This document shows positions 3,051 through 61,515 of a stretch of DNA of 64,000 bases, one piece after another (positions within the stretch are counted from its first letter, which is position 1; each line of letters starts with the position of its first letter). The notes below the pieces were generated by a model. That model made no database searches and was not told the DNA's origin. It worked only from the letters and a program-made list of their open reading frames with translations. The DNA is from an uncultured Rickettsiales bacterium (GTDB lineage: Bacteria; Pseudomonadota; Alphaproteobacteria; Rickettsiales; SXRF01), in contig CAZNPA010000006.1 in the NCBI GenBank assembly GCA_964575095.1, forward strand, positions 8,361 through 72,360, given 5' to 3'. Made by a program: the position numbers and the translations under genes.

Positions 3051-4158
3051 TCTTATCCTGCTTCCACAGTTGTTTCTGGTCGATCAGCGGCACGATACCC
3101 TGTTGCAATAGATTTAGCAAATCGCCATTCAGGCGTACGTTCAATTTGACTTCCCGCCCATTATATGCATCGGGATTATTACCTAACAATGACAGCAGGA
3201 TGGATAGTTTTTTATCTTTGCCGCTATCGATCGCCATCGAAAACTGGCGGTAATGAAAATTCTTCAGCACCTCGCGCACCAGCTCAACCTGCGGGTTATC
3301 GCCCGGAATGGCGTCAGCCGCCAGTTTGATTGTCCCTGACTCCTCGGCTTTGAGGCTGCCGGCATCGAACATCACGTTACCATTGGCATCGATAACCACC
3401 GGCACCGTGCCGGAGAGAGCGCCGGTCGCCGTTGCGCGCTTATCGGTCAACAACTGCATCAAGGCATCCAGCGATACATGCTTTACCTCCAGTGTCATGT
3501 GCGAAGCCCGTTTGGCCGCAAGCGAGAAACCGGCATTGCGCGTGGAAAGCATCCCCCCGTTCCACGGCAGGGAGGCAGACTCAATCGTGATCATAGACCG
3601 TACGGAATCATCCAAGAAATAATGGAGGTTGAAAGACGCGTTATGGCTGCTATCGGCGCTTTTGAACCGTCCTTGTGCGGCAACAACATTACCCTTCACT
3701 CCCCAGGTACCGGTTCCCGTCAGCAGCGGGAGCAACAACGGCGTATGTTGAGTTTCCACTTCATCAATATTCCATTCGCCTTGCCATGTGTTTCCCTCGA
3801 CCGCAGGCAGAAAATGTACGCCAATTTTCCGGAGGCGTATTTTTATATCGTGCGTTTCCAGCTTGATCTCACCCACGCGCAGATCCCGCAATTGGCCTTG
3901 CAACAATCCCGACAGAAAATAATCCAGCGTAAGCTCGCTGACCCTAAGCGAAACGTCAGGCCCGAAGGAGATATCCTTGAAAGTGATGCCTTCGAAACCA
4001 AGACTGGATACGGAAAACTGGATATTATCCAGGCCACGCGCCGACAGTTCGGTTTTTATCCTGCTTTCAATCCACTGTTTCCATGGAGCAAGCAGCGCCG
4101 CAACCGCAAGCAGCGCCACTACTGAAAGCAAGATAAATGCGATGTTACGTTTTTTCAT
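3037..4158 (-). CDS. ydbH: YdbH-like (AsmA-like superfamily) protein, short form
   Basis: 373 aa with an N-terminal TM anchor and a beta-rich repetitive body. Its position upstream of ynbE-ydbL matches the E. coli ydbH-ynbE-ydbL operon. Confidence 0.6.
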
Positions 4159-5260: not shown

Positions 5261-6273
5261 GATTCGTTCTTATACAATAAACACGCATCGCCATACGAAT
5301 AAAATCGGTATTTTCTGGCGATGGCGTGGGCATAGGCGGCCTTCATCGTGTCGGTTCCGGCGAACGCGCAGACCAGCATGAATAGCGTCGAGCATGGCAG
5401 GTGGAAGTTGGTAAGCAGCATATCGACGGCTTTAAACGTATACCCCGGCGTGATAAAAATATCGGTTTCGCCGGAGAACGGCTGCACAACGCCCTTTTCA
5501 TCCGCCGCTGATTCCAGCGTGCGCAGGCTGGTGGTTCCCACCACAATCACCCGCTTTGCCGCATTGATAACGGCCGCTGCATCCGCCGTAATCTCCGCCC
5601 ATTCGCTGTGCATCACATGGTCTTTGGTATCTTCGACTTTCACCGGCAAAAATGTTCCACCGCCGACATGCAGCGTGACATTCACCCGCTTCACGCCCGC
5701 CGCATCGATGGCTTTCAGCAAACTCTCGGTGAAATGCAACCCCGCCGTCGGCGCTGCCACCGAGCCTTCGTGTTTGGCATAGACGGTTTGGTAATGCGCT
5801 TTATCGCTATCGTCGGCGTGGCGTTTCTTCTCGATATACGGCGGCAGCGGCATGTGGCCGTGACGTTCTAATTCCTTGCGCAAATCCGATGTATAAAACT
5901 CCAGCACCACCTGGCCATCGGAGAATTTATCTTTCACCGTTGCGTAAAAATTCTCGGCGAATTCGATGCGATCGCCGGGTTTCAGTTTCTTCCCCGGCTT
6001 GGCGAAACATTGCCAGCCTTTACTGCCGCACTGCTTATGCAAGAGCACCTCAACGCTGGCGGCGTTTCTGCGGCCATAGAGCCGCGCCGGTATGACGCGC
6101 GTATCATTGAACACCATGACATCGCCTGGCTTAAAAAAAGAAAGCAAATCGTGGATCGATTTATCTTGAAGAGGGTTCCCAATCACCAACATCTTGGCGC
6201 TGTCACGCGGGCTGGCCGGCCTGTCCGCGATTAAGGATTCAGGAAGATCAAAATCAAAAAAACTGGTTTTCAA
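5257..6273 (-). CDS. queA: S-adenosylmethionine:tRNA ribosyltransferase-isomerase
   Basis: 338 aa with [28 protein letters not shown] and [10 protein letters not shown]. Overlaps the tgt start by 4 nt. Confidence 0.96.
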
Positions 6274-6279
6274 TGCCGT

Positions 6280-6810
6280 CTATTTTTTATCCGCATCAGC
6301 GGCAACTTGCATCTTCACAATTTTGTCAGGATTAGAGGGCGGCTCGCCACGTTTAATTTTATCGACGAATTCCATGCCGGAGGTCACCCGGCCCCACACC
6401 GTATATTGGTTATCGAGGAACTTGGAATCCTTGAACACGATGAAGAACTGGCTGTCGGCGGAATCGGGGCTTTGGGCGCGTGCCATCGAGAGAATGCCGC
6501 GCACGTGCGGCTCCTTGCTGAACTCGGCCTTGAGCTTTTGGCCGGAGCCGCTGGTGCCGGTGCCGGTGGGATCGCCCGTCTGCGCCATGAAGCCGTCGAT
6601 GACGCGGTGGAAGACGAGGCCGTCATAGAACCCCTTGCGCACGAGTTCCTTGATGCGGCGGACATGGTTGGGCGCGAGGTCGGGCAGCAGTTCGATGACG
6701 ACGCGGCCGTCCTTTAAATCAAGATACAACGTGTTTTCGGGATCGGCGGCGGCAGCGGCGGACGTGCCAAAAAGAAAAGCAAAAAGGGCGATGAATCTAC
6801 GAAATTTCAT
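6280..6810 (-). CDS. ppiB: Periplasmic cyclophilin-type peptidyl-prolyl isomerase
   Basis: Contains FHRVIDGFMAQTGDPTGTGTSG and SMARAQSPDSADSQFFI. I chose the start at MKFRRFIALFAF because an AGGAG lies upstream; the longer track ORF (to 6855) overlaps bfr. Confidence 0.9.
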   Translation of the reverse strand: MKFRRFIALFAFLFGTSAAAAADPENTLYLDLKDGRVVIELLPDLAPNHVRRIKELVRKGFYDGLVFHRVIDGFMAQTGDPTGTGTSGSGQKLKAEFSKEPHVRGILSMARAQSPDSADSQFFIVFKDSKFLDNQYTVWGRVTSGMEFVDKIKRGEPPSNPDKIVKMQVAADADKK

Positions 6811-39769: not shown

Positions 39770-39780
39770 AATATTTTTTT

Positions 39781-39827
39781 GTCATCCCTGCGCAAGCGAG
39801 AGTCCAGACCCCGCAACAAGTGCGGGG
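39781..39827. repeat. GTCATCCCTGCG-type repeat fused to a CCCCGC...GCGGGG hairpin
   Basis: GTCATCCCTGCGCAAGCGAG...CCCCGCAACAAGTGCGGGG. The first half belongs to the 24-nt hairpin family. The second hairpin resembles the one at 55357-55375 after lpdA. Confidence 0.65.
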
Positions 39828-57008: not shown

Positions 57009-57023
57009 TTTTCTTTCCTTTTT

Positions 57024-57047
57024 GTCATCCCGGCGAAGGCCGGGATC
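57024..57047. repeat. 24-nt hairpin repeat (GTCATCCC-GGC-GAAG-GCC-GGGATC)
   Basis: GTCATCCCGGCGAAGGCCGGGATC. Same family as the copies at 59410-59467, 59784-59807 and 60483-60506. Confidence 0.75.
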
Positions 57048-57104
57048 CATGTCTTTCCTATTTCTTATATGGCCTGGCCTGGATACCGGCCTACGCCGGT
57101 ATGA

Positions 57105-58406
57105 CTAAATCAACAACAAACTCGGATTCTCGACGTAATGCTTGAAGGCCGCGAGGAACTCCGCGCCGACGGCGCCGTCCACCACGCGGTGGTCGACGGA
57201 GAGCGTCACTTCCATGATATTGCGGATTTCCATTTTGCCGTGGCGCACCACTACTCTCTCACCGCCAGCGCCTACCGCCAAGATGCAGCCCTGCGGCGGG
57301 TTGACGATGGCGCCGAAATGCTTGATGCCGTACATGCCGAGATTCGAGATCGAGAACGTGCCGCCCTGGAATTCTTCCGGCATGAGTTTGTTGGCGCGGG
57401 CGCGCGCCGCCAGGTCTTTCATTTCGTTCGATACCTGTATCACCGTTTTCTGGTCGGCGTTCTTGACGATGGGCGTGATGAGGCCGCCGTCGATGGCAAC
57501 CGCCACCGAAATATCGACGTTGTTATATTGCAAAATCGCTTCGTCGCTCCACGACGCGTTGGCGGCGGGGATTTTCTTCAAAGCCAGCGCCGATGCTTTA
57601 ATAATAAAATCATTCACTGAAAGTTTATAGGCCGGTTTTTTGTCTTTCCCGGCACGCGCTTCGGCGTCGAAATTGATTTCCTTCCTGACGTCGAGCAGCC
57701 TATCCAATTCGCATTCAATGGTCAGGTAAAAATGCGGCACCTGCTGCTTCGATTCGGTCAAGCGCTTGGCGACGATTTTCCTTATATTGCTATTGGGAAT
57801 TTTGGTGAACTCGGTGGGATTCCTGCTCACCTGCCCGCGCCCTGTGCCGCCGGATGCCAGCGCCTTCAGCACGTCGTCTTTCACGATGCGCCCGTGCGGG
57901 CCGCTGCCCTGCACCATGCCAAGCTGCACGCCTTCGCTGGCGGCAACGCGCTTGGCGAGAGGGCTCGCGAAGATGCGCGAACTTACGCTCCCCCCTTGGG
58001 GGGGAGCAGCTGAGAGCAAGTGCTCTTGCGCGCCGCTCGAAGCGTGGGGGGTAGGCTTTGCAACTTTACCCCCCACGGCTTGACCTTCGCTTACGCTTGG
58101 TCTCGCCTGCTCCCCCCCAAGGGGGGAGCGGGGTTTATAACTCGCCAGCGCGCCCTTATCCTCACCCTCTTCGAGAAGCAGCGCGATGACCTCGTTGACC
58201 TTGACGTTCTGTGTTCCCGCCGGGACCATGATCTTGCCGATGGTGCCTTCATCGACCGCTTCGACTTCCATCGTCGCCTTGTCGGTCTCTATTTCGGCGA
58301 TGACCTTGCCGGACTTGATCTGGTCGCCCTCTTTGACATGCCACTTGGCAAGGTTGCCCTCGGTCATGGTCGGTGACAGCGCAGGCATCAGGATTTCAAT
58401 CGGCAT
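57105..58406 (-). CDS. pdhC: Pyruvate dehydrogenase E2 dihydrolipoamide acetyltransferase with an in-frame palindromic insertion in the linker
   Basis: Lipoyl domain (AEIETDKATMEVEA), PSBD (ASPLAKRVAASEGVQLGMVQGSGPHGRIVK) and catalytic domain (DHRVVDGA). Confidence 0.95.
   Translation of the reverse strand: MPIEILMPALSPTMTEGNLAKWHVKEGDQIKSGKVIAEIETDKATMEVEAVDEGTIGKIMVPAGTQNVKVNEVIALLLEEGEDKGALASYKPRSPLGGEQARPSVSEGQAVGGKVAKPTPHASSGAQEHLLSAAPPQGGSVSSRIFASPLAKRVAASEGVQLGMVQGSGPHGRIVKDDVLKALASGGTGRGQVSRNPTEFTKIPNSNIRKIVAKRLTESKQQVPHFYLTIECELDRLLDVRKEINFDAEARAGKDKKPAYKLSVNDFIIKASALALKKIPAANASWSDEAILQYNNVDISVAVAIDGGLITPIVKNADQKTVIQVSNEMKDLAARARANKLMPEEFQGGTFSISNLGMYGIKHFGAIVNPPQGCILAVGAGGERVVVRHGKMEIRNIMEVTLSVDHRVVDGAVGAEFLAAFKHYVENPSLLLI
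57987..58130. repeat. Nested-palindrome element, copy 6 (in-frame inside pdhC)
   Basis: GCTCCCCCCTTGGGGGGGAGC ... GCGTGGGGGGTAGGC ... CCCCCCACGGC ... GCTCCCCCCCAAGGGGGGAGC. On the coding strand it reads SPLGGEQARPSVSEGQAVGGKVAKPTPHASSGAQEHLLSAAPPQGGS. Confidence 0.85.
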
Positions 58407-58418
58407 CTATTCAGGCTC

Positions 58419-59396
58419 CTATTTGTAACAAACGCTTTTGACCGCATCGATGATGTGGCTTGCCTGCGGCAGCGCCAGCTTCTCGAGGTTAGCGGCGTAG
58501 GGCAGCGGCACGTCGAGCCCCGCCACGCGTGCGACCGGCGCGTCGAGGTAATCGAAGGCGTGCTCCATAATCTGCGAAGAAATTTCCGCGCCGATGCCCA
58601 TGGGCGCCCAGCCCTCTTCCACCGACACGCAGCGGTTGGTTTTCTTGACCGACTCGACGATGGTTTCAGTATCGAGCGGGCGCAGCGTGCGCAGGTTTAT
58701 CACTTCGGCGCTAATCCCTTCTTGCGCTAACTGTTCCGCTGCTTGCAACGCTTTACCGACCATGATCGAAAAGGCGACAATGGTGACGTCGGTGCCCTCG
58801 CGTTCGATATGCGCCTTGCCGATGGGCAAAATGAAATCGCTGTCGTCCGGCACGTCAAAACTTGTTCCGTACATGAGTTCGTTTTCGAGGAATACAATCG
58901 GATTCGGGTCGCGGATGGCGGCTTTCAATAATCCTTTTGCGTCCGCCGACGAATAGGGCGCGACGACTTTGAGGCCCGGCACGTGCGCATACCAGCTGCC
59001 GTAGCACTGCGAGTGCTGCGCCGCGACGCGCGACGCCGCGCCGTTGGGGCCGCGAAATACAATCGGGCAGCCGATCTGACCGCCGGACATGTAGCGCTGT
59101 TTGGCGCTGGTCACGATATGGTCGAGCGCCTGCATGGCGAAGTTCCAGGTCATGAATTCGACGATGGGCTTCAAGCCCATCATCGACGCGCCTACCCCTA
59201 AGCCGCAGAAACCATATTCCGTGATCGGCGTATCGACAACGCGCTTGGGCCCGAACTCCTGCAACAGCCCTTGCGTCACCTTGTACGCGCCCTGGTATTC
59301 GGCGACTTCCTCGCCCATGACGAAGACCTCGCCGTCGCGGCGCATCTCCTCGGCCATGGCGTCTCTTAGGGCGTCTCTTACGGTTAGTGTAGCCAC
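58419..59396 (-). CDS. pdhB: Pyruvate dehydrogenase E1 beta subunit
   Basis: 325 aa with [24 protein letters not shown] and PVVFLENE-like [11 protein letters not shown]. Confidence 0.95.
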
Positions 59397-59409
59397 AAAC
59401 TATCCTTTT

Positions 59410-59467
59410 CTTGTCACCCCTGCGAAAGCAGGGGTCTTAAGATTCCTGCTTACGCAGGAATGACAAG
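59410..59467. repeat. Composite two-hairpin cruciform of the 24-nt repeat family
   Basis: CTTGTCA-CCCCTGC-GAAA-GCAGGGG-TCTTAAGA-TTCCTGC-TTAC-GCAGGAA-TGACAAG, with perfect two-fold symmetry. Confidence 0.85.
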
Positions 59468-59472
59468 TAAAA

Positions 59473-59775
59473 TTACATCCAGTTATGTATATCTTCATAT
59501 AAATCTTTCCATTCCGGGTTCACTTTCTCGATCAATTCAATTTTCCAATCCCGTTTCCAACGCTTCAGGCATTTTTCTCTGTGGATGGCTTGGTCAATGT
59601 AATCAAATGCTTCTACATAAACCAACCGTTTAACGTGATATGTCTTACTGAATCCCTCTATCAATCCTTCTTTATGTTCTACGGCTCTTCTCGGTAAATC
59701 GTTAGTCACTCCAATATAAAGCACCCCGTATTTTTTACTTGCGATAATATAAACATAATATCTGTGTTTTCTCAT
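59473..59775 (-). CDS. GIY-YIG nuclease family protein (small URI-domain type)
   Basis: 100 aa with YYVYIIASKKYGVLYIGVTNDLPRRAVEH and REKCLKRWKR. AT-rich. Flanked by hairpin repeats on both sides. Confidence 0.85.
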   Translation of the reverse strand: MRKHRYYVYIIASKKYGVLYIGVTNDLPRRAVEHKEGLIEGFSKTYHVKRLVYVEAFDYIDQAIHREKCLKRWKRDWKIELIEKVNPEWKDLYEDIHNWM

Positions 59776-59783
59776 GGTTTTTT

Positions 59784-59807
59784 GTCATTCCTGCGAAAGC
59801 AGGAATC
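59784..59807. repeat. 24-nt hairpin repeat
   Basis: GTCATTCCTGCGAAAGCAGGAATC. Confidence 0.8.
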
Positions 59808-59822
59808 TAGTTTCTATCATAC

Positions 59823-60104
59823 TTATGGTAAGCACCTAATTACCCATGTATGTACCTGCCGGTAGGAACTATCGGGAAGCAAGGTGGTATGCTCAGATAT
59901 TTTCTTGAATCCATTATGACACCGTTCTAAAGCATCAGTACTCATCGCATTAAGCGCTATGTTTGGGTTATTATTTACCGTATTATCCGTAGCACTGATG
60001 GTGTAAGTATTATTGCTGGTCTTTTCACCAGTAACGATAGGGTCACACCCAGTGACAATGCCAGCCAATATCATTAGCAATGAGATTTTAGTAAAAATTT
60101 TCAT
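59823..60104 (-). CDS. Small lipoprotein, unknown function
   Basis: 93 aa with lipobox AGIVTGC and an Asn/Thr-rich mature part containing 2 Cys. AT-rich. Confidence 0.55.
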   Translation of the reverse strand: MKIFTKISLLMILAGIVTGCDPIVTGEKTSNNTYTISATDNTVNNNPNIALNAMSTDALERCHNGFKKISEHTTLLPDSSYRQVHTWVIRCLP

Positions 60105-60125
60105 GATGTTTCCGTTGTACTCGAT

Positions 60126-60455
60126 TTAGATGTTTAGCTCTAATGTTACTCTCGGATGTTCTCTATCTTTCGGTGCCCAATAATTTTTAACTTTGGCATC
60201 AATTTTTTCGCCAGCATCTAAACGCTTTGACAGGTTTTTAGCGGTACTGGCCTTAATAAAACCTATTTGTTTTCTGCCTATTCCAAGCAATCCAAAAAAT
60301 ACGGGAATGGCAAGATAAACCTCGATGGCATTCTCATCAAATTTATTATTCGGATTACGCTCAAGAAATACAGTCATTCCTTCACGGCAGTATCGCTTGA
60401 TAATTTCTGCCCGGTGCTCAAATCCAGTACCTGCAACAATAGCGCTTCGTGACAT
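60126..60455 (-). CDS. Stand-alone HIRAN-domain protein
   Basis: 109 aa. IVAGTGFEHRAEIIKRYCREGMTVFLERNPNNKFDENAIEVY...IGFIKASTAKNLSKRLDAG fits the HIRAN pattern (G..y......l..G..v.L.RePdN.yD.nAi.V....g..iGyi). Confidence 0.7.
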   Translation of the reverse strand: MSRSAIVAGTGFEHRAEIIKRYCREGMTVFLERNPNNKFDENAIEVYLAIPVFFGLLGIGRKQIGFIKASTAKNLSKRLDAGEKIDAKVKNYWAPKDREHPRVTLELNI

Positions 60456-60482
60456 TAAAAAATCTTTCTTTCTCTAAGTCTA

Positions 60483-60506
60483 GATCCCTGCTTTCGCAGG
60501 GATGAC
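60483..60506. repeat. 24-nt hairpin repeat, inverted orientation
   Basis: GATCCCTGCTTTCGCAGGGATGAC, the reverse complement of the GTCATCCCTGCGAAAGCAGGGATC consensus. It lies 4 nt from the pdhA stop. Confidence 0.8.
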
Positions 60507-60510
60507 AAAT

Positions 60511-61515
60511 TTAAATAGTCACATCCGTCCACAGCTCGGACTCCGGCGGTTCGGGAGATTGTTGCGCAAACTCCGCCGAGTCGTTGACGATGGTTTTGGT
60601 TTCCTTGTCGATGGCCTTGAAATCTTCCTCGCTGACCATGCCGTCTTTGATCAATTTATTTTTCAGGCTGTCGATGGGGTCGTGCTGGTCCTTGTATTTG
60701 TCGACCTCCTCCTTGCTGCGGTACTTCGCCGGGTCGGACATCGAGTGGCCGCGGTAGCGGTAGGTTTTCATCTCAAGCAGGATCGGGCCGTGACCGGCGC
60801 GGACATAGGCTACCGCTTCCTCGGCCGCCTGATGCACCGTCAACACGTCCATGCCGTCGACCTGCCTGCCGGGAATGCCGAAGCCTTCGCCGCGGCGGTA
60901 AAGCTCCGTCGTCGCCGAGCCGCGCTTGATCGAGGTACCCATGGCATATTCGTTGTTCTCGATGACGTAGATGATGGGGAGCTTCCATAGCGACGCCATG
61001 TTGAATGCTTCGTACACCTGTCCCTGGTTGGCGGCACCGTCGCCGAAATAGCAGACGCACAGGCGGCCGTTGCCGCGGTATTTGTGGGCGAAGGCGATGC
61101 CGGTGCCGAGCGGCACCTGCGCGCCGACGATACCGTGGCCGCCGTAGAAATGTTTTTCGCGCGAGAACATGTGCATCGAGCCGCTCTTGCCCTTAGCGAT
61201 GCCGCCGACGCGCCCCGTCAGCTCGGCCATAATTTCGTTGGGCGTCATGCCGCAGGCCAGCATGTGGCCGTGGTCGCGGTAGCCGCTGATGACGGCGTCG
61301 TCGGGCGTGAGGCAATCCTGGATGCCGACCACCACCGCTTCCTGCCCGATATAAAGATGGCAGAAGCCGCCGATCAGCCCCATGCCGTAAAGCTGCCCGG
61401 CCTTCTCCTCGAAGCGGCGGATCAGCAGCATGTCGCGGTAGAACTGCAGCAGTTTTTCTTTGGGCAGCGGCGCAGGGGTTGCGGCGGCAAGTTTTGGATT
61501 GAGGGTTTTAGACAT
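60511..61515 (-). CDS. pdhA: Pyruvate dehydrogenase E1 alpha subunit
   Basis: 334 aa with the TPP motif YFGDGAANQGQVYEAFNMA, plus YRYRGHSMSDP. Confidence 0.95.
   Translation of the reverse strand: MSKTLNPKLAAATPAPLPKEKLLQFYRDMLLIRRFEEKAGQLYGMGLIGGFCHLYIGQEAVVVGIQDCLTPDDAVISGYRDHGHMLACGMTPNEIMAELTGRVGGIAKGKSGSMHMFSREKHFYGGHGIVGAQVPLGTGIAFAHKYRGNGRLCVCYFGDGAANQGQVYEAFNMASLWKLPIIYVIENNEYAMGTSIKRGSATTELYRRGEGFGIPGRQVDGMDVLTVHQAAEEAVAYVRAGHGPILLEMKTYRYRGHSMSDPAKYRSKEEVDKYKDQHDPIDSLKNKLIKDGMVSEEDFKAIDKETKTIVNDSAEFAQQSPEPPESELWTDVTI

Follow-up and report, generated by a model that had tools for sequence, protein, structure and literature searches.

In the genome of an uncultured Rickettsiales bacterium, the genes of pyruvate dehydrogenase E1 alpha (pdhA) and E1 beta (pdhB) are separated by an insert that carries a set of hairpin repeats and three small genes, encoding a stand-alone HIRAN-domain protein, a predicted lipoprotein and a GIY-YIG nuclease. 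We analysed this insert within a stretch of 64,000 nt (contig CAZNPA010000006.1, positions 8,361 to 72,360), hereafter the window. Comparison with related loci makes it highly probable that the insert is composed of two modules of the Ssn/SRM type, and not of a three-gene operon. One module is most likely a resident nuclease gene of the Ssn family (ssn) with its cognate hairpins. The other would be a passenger cassette, [SRM> HIRAN + small lipoprotein <SRM], at a position where relatives hold a bare SRM doublet. The core of the Ssn/SRM system has already been published; the new lead appears to be the relocation of a cassette with hairpin-exact ends.

The insert fills exactly the pdhA-pdhB intergenic space (59397-60510, 1,114 nt), and every pdh and insert gene lies on the minus strand. 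Its GC content is 0.35-0.41 (about 38%), compared to about 0.58-0.66 in the flanks (about 60% in pdhA and pdhB), and the GC step coincides exactly with the gap. In gene direction the layout reads pdhA [R>] HIRAN lipo [<R] GIY-YIG [R>][<R] pdhB pdhC [R>]..[<R], in which R denotes a hairpin. An initial annotation, made from the letters of the window, had described these genes, their spacing, the AT-richness and the repeats, all of which are indeed present. No further copies of the three insert genes were found elsewhere in the window, and a sequence scan detected neither a terminator-like site on the gene strand nor a strong promoter within the insert.

A hairpin-bounded HIRAN and lipoprotein cassette

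The left end of the cassette is a hairpin at 60480-60509 (stem-loop 60484-60505, forward on the minus strand), which begins 1 nt past the stop codon of pdhA. Its right end is a hairpin at 59781-59810 (stem-loop 59785-59806, forward on the plus strand), and the two form an inverted repeat with 93% complementarity. Both had been recognised in the initial annotation, as an inverted copy at the right edge of the insert (60483-60506) and as a third copy (59784-59807) that parts the GIY-YIG gene from the other two. Enclosed between them are the genes of the 109-residue HIRAN protein (60126-60455, minus strand) and of the 93-residue lipoprotein (59823-60104, minus strand).

The same arrangement recurs at an unrelated junction in another genome (locus L089), which reads ftsK-[SRM>]-HIRAN-lipoprotein-[<SRM]-lolA and has no adjacent ssn. 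The two proteins share 86% (HIRAN) and 78% (lipoprotein) amino-acid identity with those of the window, and the flanking genes were called by FtsK_gamma (91 bits) and LolA (90 bits). At the DNA level the two loci align with about 86% identity; this homology sets in with base one of the left SRM and runs as far as the final base of the right SRM, and the flanks beyond the hairpins are unrelated. The differences between the hairpins of the two loci are compensated in the stems. In addition, two loci in which ssn also lies between pdhA and pdhB (L003 and L009) have an empty [R>][<R] doublet between pdhA and ssn, at the spot equivalent to the cassette. The earlier suggestion that the hairpins are the ends of a unit is therefore borne out for HIRAN and lipoprotein, as the homology stops exactly at the hairpins, and for ssn it agrees with what others have hypothesised (PMC11893778). 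Altogether, the sequence comparison identifies the HIRAN and lipoprotein pair as a separate, discrete hairpin-bounded cassette, evidently placed at no fewer than two unrelated conserved junctions, and hints that SRM hairpins mark movable units. The locus thereby provides comparative evidence, from two unrelated junctions, that inverted SRM pairs may delimit relocatable protein-coding units.

Between the window and L089, dN/dS is 0.15 for both genes, indicating that the HIRAN and lipoprotein genes are functional and evolve under purifying selection. The HIRAN protein scores 37.3 bits with PF08797, for which the cut-off is 24.7, and its AlphaFold model has a pLDDT of 89.6. Structural similarity search using Foldseek gave the stand-alone HIRAN protein lp_0118 (PDB 3k2y) and the HIRAN-DNA structure of HLTF (PDB 4s0n) as top matches, with a probability of 1.0 and TM values of 0.62-0.68. 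They share the same fold, the conserved N-x-x-D-x-N-A motif and a size of about 109 residues; as judged from the model, the HIRAN protein has the fold that binds 3' ends of single-stranded DNA (ssDNA). It differs from these proteins in that no helicase, ligase or nuclease domain is fused to it, and in that its gene is accompanied by that of an orphan lipoprotein, the pair being enclosed by SRM hairpins. The 93-residue protein has a lipobox-like ...GIVTGC, with no matches in Pfam, NCBIfam or PADLOC. Its model is weak (pLDDT 68) and gave no significant Foldseek match. NCBIfam likewise returned no match for the HIRAN or the GIY-YIG protein.

Both passengers are rare. The HIRAN subfamily has six other members, seven in all, and among 1.8 billion representatives the lipoprotein has one other copy, that of L089, and two relatives that are 33% identical. 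Around more distant HIRAN homologs neither hairpins nor ssn occur, and the neighbouring genes are unrelated. One of these homologs, a stand-alone HIRAN protein of 50% identity, is encoded directly 3' of a 381-residue VRR_NUC protein (L094, 2853-4330), within an island that holds an integrase, AlpA and a KAP NTPase; this pairing of nuclease and HIRAN lacks SRM hairpins.

The Ssn nuclease at the pdhA-pdhB junction

The GIY-YIG gene (ssn; 59473-59775, minus strand) encodes a single-domain protein of 100 residues, which matches PF01541 with 54.7 bits against a cut-off of 22.6. The domain spans residues 6-79, and no second domain is present. The initial calls of HIRAN and GIY-YIG domains are thus upheld by Pfam scores above the cut-offs and, for HIRAN, also by the structure model. 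Compared to the 94-residue SsnA homolog of Neisseria gonorrhoeae, the window protein has 52% identity over 89 residues (pairwise blastp, E = 5e-32); tblastn against a 7.3-Gb plasmid database reached N. gonorrhoeae with E = 1e-21. These values lie within the homology criterion of E < 1e-10 adopted for SsnA (PMC11893778). Residues Y9, Y20 and E67 correspond in the alignment to the catalytic residues Y6, Y17 and E64 of N. meningitidis SsnA, and Y9, Y20, G22, R30, H34, E67 and N86 are invariant across an alignment of 33 homologs. The nearest solved structures are the UPF0213 proteins 1zg2 and 1ywl and the N-terminal domain of UvrC. By sequence, we assign the GIY-YIG gene to the published Ssn family of ssDNA endonucleases, and its repeat to the cognate hairpin type (NTS/SRM, dRS3).

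SsnA of N. meningitidis (cd10448) is a site-specific ssDNA endonuclease of 94 residues (Chenal et al., Nat Commun 2025, PMC11893778). Its binding site is the NTS, a hairpin of 28 nt (CGTCATTCCCGCGMAVGCGGGAATCYRG), and cleavage takes place 3 nt upstream, on the forward strand only; the enzyme acts on ssDNA and not on double-stranded DNA (dsDNA), and it does not bind RNA (PMC11893778). Cleavage was demonstrated for the homologs of N. meningitidis, N. elongata, N. wadsworthii and Wolbachia, and SsnA reduces the transformation of N. meningitidis by NTS-bearing DNA (PMC11893778). Across bacteria, ssnA homologs are bracketed by such hairpins, for which the term 'SRM' was introduced as a generalisation (PMC11893778). 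The same authors likened NTS-ssnA-NTS to an insertion sequence and offered the RAYT/REP analogy as a hypothesis; a mobile NTS-ssnA-NTS is no more than a hypothesis there, and the role of Ssn outside Neisseria is stated as unknown (PMC11893778). As that paper already draws the analogy, we withdrew the idea of a new RAYT-like system. Nothing relevant was found in the literature on GIY-YIG together with REP, RAYT, REPIN or YhbQ.

The family is large, with 2,805 homologs at E <= 1e-5, and homologs of 65-78% identity occur in Omnitrophota, Patescibacteria, Kiritimatiellia, Ignavibacteria and Proteobacteria. No ssn homolog was found at E <= 1e-10 in a phage collection of 50,697 records. The matches in the plasmid collection are mostly megaplasmids, chromids and mislabelled chromosomes, with no sign among them of a plasmid vector for ssn. 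Two of these records, NZ_CP119140.1 and NZ_CP119142.1 (L095), are 2.17-Mb N. gonorrhoeae chromosomes filed as plasmids, each with a single ssn homolog (52% identity). The N. gonorrhoeae homolog lies inside a NIME array with 16 dRS3 copies in about 900 nt, and a hairpin stands 4 nt past its stop codon.

An ssn gene between pdhA and pdhB is also present in L003, L004 and L009, all three of which lack the HIRAN and lipoprotein genes. These copies are 77%, 74% and about 77% identical to that of the window, respectively. The corresponding identities in L003 and L004 are 78% and 73% for pdhA, and 80% and 75% for enolase. Synonymous sites of ssn are saturated and pN is 0.12-0.15, which argues for long residence under purifying selection. 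Together, these comparisons indicate that ssn has long resided at the pdhA-pdhB junction of a small alphaproteobacterial lineage and has been maintained there by selection. The locus suggests that ssn can persist for long within an essential operon junction, AT-rich and under purifying selection. Other ssn copies lie between pyrB and pyrC in L006 and L008, each preceded by an ORF (open reading frame) of 89 residues (3665-3934 and 3609-3878, respectively). The two encoded proteins are unrelated in sequence, and their position may be a further variable passenger slot beside ssn.

To place the insert among relatives, we surveyed the junctions of 80 further pdhB relatives (71-80% identity), 69 of which were measurable. 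Neither ssn nor HIRAN was present at any of these 69 junctions, in agreement with the earlier statement that pdhA and pdhB are normally adjacent. Most relatives have about 400-470 nt of extra length at the junction, on the 5' side of pdhB, ascribed to the lipoyl domain of PdhB, which is visible in L105. In the window, pdhB (58419-59396, minus strand; NF008854, 640 bits) encodes a short form of 325 residues without the N-terminal lipoyl domain, matching positions 139-464 of the 464-position profile. L004, L108 and L114 also have a short PdhB, and at two loci with a short PdhB the gap is 26-36 nt. The junction of L105 holds a bare SRM doublet at 2900-2985 (GTCATCCCGGCGGAAGCCGGGATC and its inverted partner) and no ssn, suggesting that the pdhA-pdhB junction is a recurrent landing site of hairpins.

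Upstream of the insert lies pdhA (60511-61515, minus strand; TIGR03182, 520 bits), and pdhC follows pdhB (57105-58406, minus strand, from the ORF list). Within the 5' part of pdhB, 12 nt are duplicated in tandem (GGCGTCTCTTAG / GGCGTCTCTTAC, 59358-59381), which gives RDALRDA in the N-terminus of PdhB. Additional small genes were observed in the pdh operon of L004 (GCA_964645205.1): a lipoprotein-like ORF of 54 residues (MRALALVLLLSGC...) at 3787-3951, between pdhA and ssn, and three ORFs of 136, 150 and 137 residues without an assigned family at 5348-6636, between pdhB and pdhC. These extra ORFs suggest that pdh operon junctions of this lineage gather small genes repeatedly.

Hairpin repeats and their association with ssn

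The insert contains four copies of TTGTCAYYCCTGCG-NAA-GCAGGRRTCT, at 59414-59435 (+), 59442-59463 (-), 59785-59806 (+) and 60484-60505 (-), each forming a perfect 8-bp stem with a 4-nt loop. The first two stand back to back as a doublet between ssn and pdhB (59406-59471). Hairpins bracket ssn, one of them 5 nt ahead of the start codon and another 1 nt past the stop codon. The left edge of the insert had been described as a perfect two-hairpin cruciform; each of the two hairpins is indeed perfect, whereas the joint palindrome of 33+33 nt is only 82% complementary. The earlier description covered the copies of the repeat in the insert; further copies occur in the window outside it. A GC-rich doublet lies 3' of pdhC (57023-57106), composed of copies at 57023-57050 (+) and 57079-57106 (-) whose hairpins start at 57025 and 57083. 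In addition, repeat search revealed a degenerate copy, TGTCATCCCTGCGCAAGCGAGAGT, at 39780-39803 (+), followed by a separate GC hairpin, ccccgcaacaagtgcgggg. A degenerate pattern matched 10 times in the window compared to 0.83 expected, a number equalled in none of 100 shuffles.

Between copies, the stems vary solely by compensated changes. Single hairpins fold as ssDNA with -7.8 to -9.3 kcal/mol (z about -5), for example -9.3 kcal/mol with z = -4.8 for 60480-60509, and the doublet at 59406-59471 with -22.1 kcal/mol and z = -8.4; for the doublet downstream of pdhC, z is -7.3. All six copies of the operon have GTC 5' and C 3' of the palindrome, with z values of -4.8 to -8.4, and all are intergenic, the copy at 57079-57106 (-) overlapping the stop codon of pdhC. 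The loops are often GNRA-like (GAAA, GTAA), and the hairpins stand in both orientations relative to transcription. The core of the window hairpins fits the Neisseria dRS3 pattern, which is ATTCCC(N8)GGGAAT (PMC3898611). Compared to the 28-nt NTS, the six copies have 3, 5, 6, 6, 6 and 9 mismatches, with 3 at the right and 5 at the left end of the cassette. The differences in the stem are mostly compensated pairs, in addition to C1>T, and the GTCA and TC flanks are retained. The NTS search of Chenal et al. tolerated one mismatch (PMC11893778). With 3-9 mismatches, the window repeats are NTS-like and not canonical Neisseria NTS.

Two other identities were considered for the hairpins. They were rejected as intrinsic terminators, as no T-run is present on the gene strand. 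The Rfam family RF02748 (FtrB) matched at 59395-59481 and 60450-60522 with 22-25 bits against a cut-off of 66, and no RNA family was assigned. The consensus of this RNA, Francisella small RNA B, includes an NTS/SRM-like hairpin, GuCauuCcCGCGuAGGCGgGaauCU, and an ssn homolog accompanied by variant hairpins is present in a Francisella genome (L065); possibly, FtrB is an SRM element that is transcribed.

The association of ssn with hairpins extends far beyond this lineage. Hairpins flank ssn likewise in L003, L004, L006, L008 and L009, the order being [R>] gene [<R] in L004 and L006, [R>][<R] gene [<R] in L008 and pdhA [R>][<R] gene [<R in L003. We further scanned 80 ssn loci of reference genomes from many phyla (L009-L088). 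In 46 of the 80 loci a strict hairpin occurs no more than 150 nt from ssn, in 29 of them on both sides; near ssn such hairpins reach a density of 3.85 per kb, compared to 0.097 per kb in the rest of these loci, an enrichment of about 40-fold. Most loci without a strict hairpin have variants that share the TGTC.../...CCAG flanks and differ in stems and loops. With a structure-based rule (GTC plus a perfect stem of at least 7 bp), a hairpin was found in 71 of the 80 loci and in two of 80 control pieces. By contrast, the published SRM pattern, HGTCWYN(0-2)YYVSBRHN(0-5)WNVSBRGN(0-2)RNCYNB, detected hairpins by ssn in 34 of the 80 loci and missed more than half of the ssn-flanking hairpins, those with a T:A pair in the stem or with a long loop (cttga) escaping it. 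As it misses common T:A-stem variants, repeat counts and the mining of Ssn/hairpin systems for ssDNA tools are affected.

In all 80 loci, ssn is AT-richer than its flanks, by 10 points on average. The low GC content in the window is therefore a trait of the ssn family, and AT-richness does not serve as the sign of recent arrival for which it might be taken; moreover, ssn is as diverged as the neighbouring housekeeping genes.

Proposed mechanism and alternatives

We propose that the hairpins extrude where DNA is single-stranded, as at replication forks, in transcription bubbles and in incoming transforming strands. Ssn would bind the extruded 28-nt motif and introduce a nick 3 nt upstream of it, on the forward strand. 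From the sequence geometry, an inverted pair [R> ... <R] places the predicted nicks just outside the unit, one per strand and at most 3 nt from the homology boundaries. Inverted SRM pairs might in this way serve both as boundaries that travel with the unit and as short arms of homology, and the DNA between two SRMs could then be exchanged into any resident SRM doublet. SRM doublets appear to favour the short intergenic gaps of conserved operons, where passengers would be transcribed by read-through with the operon.

Among the competing explanations, the initial annotation had considered a small defence or addiction module. A single DNA-targeting module of all three proteins, in which for example the nuclease makes 3' ends for HIRAN, is very improbable, even though the genes lie tightly packed on the same strand and HIRAN has the fold that binds 3' ends of ssDNA. 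GIY-YIG nucleases leave 3'-OH ends, and the distant HIRAN homolog of L094, directly 3' of a VRR_NUC nuclease in an integrase island with a KAP NTPase, also fits such a pairing. However, the parts occur separately, with ssn at the junction without HIRAN and lipoprotein in L003, L004 and L009 and the cassette without adjacent ssn in L089, and a check of co-occurrence revealed that the genes do not travel together. Detailed inspection of eight other ssn loci revealed no HIRAN homolog at any of them; this screen did not extend to the 79 further loci of the reference scan. Moreover, a hairpin stands between the two modules in the window, and the ssn family is very large compared to the seven known members of this HIRAN subfamily. 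PADLOC gave partial matches of 13.6-19.5 bits (PDC-M03B, UzuA), the best being a weak one to the candidate PDC-M03B at 19.5 bits; these scores reflect the shared HIRAN domain alone, and no partner genes of any described system were present. A defence role is not supported.

It is also improbable that the GIY-YIG gene encodes a free-standing homing endonuclease, which would cut the dsDNA of empty pdhA-pdhB or pyrB-pyrC junctions and insert a copy of its own gene there, with the hairpins as target or incidental. The intergenic sites in these conserved operons, the patchy occupancy among relatives, the identity of 65-78% across phyla, which suggests horizontal spread, and a gene AT-richer than every host examined would all suit such an enzyme. 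Nevertheless, the protein has no DNA-binding domain beyond its catalytic core of 100 residues, and the phage records hold no homolog at the threshold given above; membership of this class was rejected on these two points. In addition, characterised family members are inactive on dsDNA (PMC11893778), and the divergence of ssn, like that of its housekeeping neighbours and with saturated synonymous sites, points to long residence. Similarly improbable is the view that nothing is mobile, in which the hairpins would be common REP-like elements with a role in mRNA stability or punctuation, and the three genes an ancient arrangement fixed in this lineage. The divergence of ssn tracks that of pdhA and enolase, the loops are often GNRA-like, and hairpins occupy several intergenic gaps of one operon, including that 3' of pdhC. 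Against it, L003, L004 and L009 lack the cassette at this junction, and L089 has it between ftsK and lolA, with hairpin-exact boundaries. As the hairpins stand in both orientations, only half of them would present a given RNA loop. Furthermore, SsnA does not bind RNA (PMC11893778), and the hairpin accompanies ssn across phyla.

Several observations weigh against our preferred explanation of a resident ssn module and a relocated passenger cassette. We know of no strand-transfer activity of Ssn, which is a nuclease, and inverted SRMs offer just one cleavable site per strand, unlike the ends of IS200/IS605. The databases hold two copies of the passenger cassette, so that its 'mobility' comes from a single comparison, and the dS of 0.5-0.8 between them means that the two placements are not recent. 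Occupancy of the junction is patchy with respect to PdhB identity, L009 (73.5%) being occupied and L097 (80%) empty; vertical descent with losses is therefore indistinguishable from repeated acquisition at the same site. Of the hairpins, the two copies downstream of pdhC match the literal SRM pattern, whereas the four insert copies fail it because of one T:A stem pair. Outside the pdh operon, about 60 kb of the window contain one degenerate SRM, and the genome thus appears SRM-poor.

More tentatively, SRM pairs could be the ends of a general, unrecognised class of relocatable cassettes, moved into resident doublets by Ssn in trans or by short-homology recombination, with a preference for the gaps of essential operons, in which read-through would secure their expression; we regard this generalisation as possible rather than likely. 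If it held, the HIRAN and lipoprotein pair would be the first documented protein-coding SRM passenger outside Neisseria, and might act on the 3' ssDNA ends produced by Ssn.

The closest known system is Ssn/NTS of N. meningitidis (PMC11893778). They share a single-domain GIY-YIG protein of about 94-100 residues that retains the catalytic Y, Y and E (the Neisseria homolog being 52% identical), oriented hairpins around the gene with the architecture GTCA-ATTCC.GCG....CGC.GGAAT-C, and intergenic hairpins that also bracket other genes ('NTS-Gene-NTS'). However, the host here is an alphaproteobacterial metagenome-assembled genome of roughly 60% GC with few SRMs, compared to hundreds in Neisseria; the stems hold a T:A pair barred by the published SRM pattern; and ssn is lodged in a junction of an essential operon. 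Here, two loci carry a passenger cassette bounded by SRMs, whereas such mobility is only hypothesised in that study. The dRS3/NIME repeats and 'minimal mobile elements' of Neisseria likewise have a palindromic core, ATTCC(C/T)-N8-(G/A)GGAAT, and bracket variable genes between conserved flanking genes; dRS3 were proposed as sites of recombination, integration or deletion (PMC3898611). They differ in abundance and cargo: Neisseria has about 700 copies in large arrays with mostly surface-protein cargo, compared to a handful of copies with HIRAN and lipoprotein cargo here. Neither an Nf-type phage nor a Piv-like recombinase was seen in the window, in a search that was not exhaustive.

The overall architecture also resembles RAYT/REP-REPIN, whose parents are IS200/IS605. 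In both, a small nuclease gene in single copy stands between inverted hairpin repeats that also occur elsewhere as inverted doublets; both persist vertically over long times, and their enzymes recognise hairpins in ssDNA. Despite this, membership was rejected and the architecture is analogous only, as the encoded protein is a GIY-YIG nuclease with no known strand-transfer chemistry and not an HUH/Y1 (IS200-like) transposase. Moreover, ssn is 65-78% identical across phyla, consistent with horizontal spread, whereas RAYTs are mostly vertical, and the doublets here can carry protein-coding cargo. Integron cassettes are similar in that short AT-rich genes on one strand, often with no known function, depend on an external promoter and are parted by imperfect palindromes that fold as ssDNA. 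Neither a tyrosine-recombinase integrase nor an attI site is present here. Compared to attC sites of roughly 60-140 nt, the hairpins of the insert measure 22-30 nt and form inverted pairs around each unit, and they are located inside a housekeeping operon.

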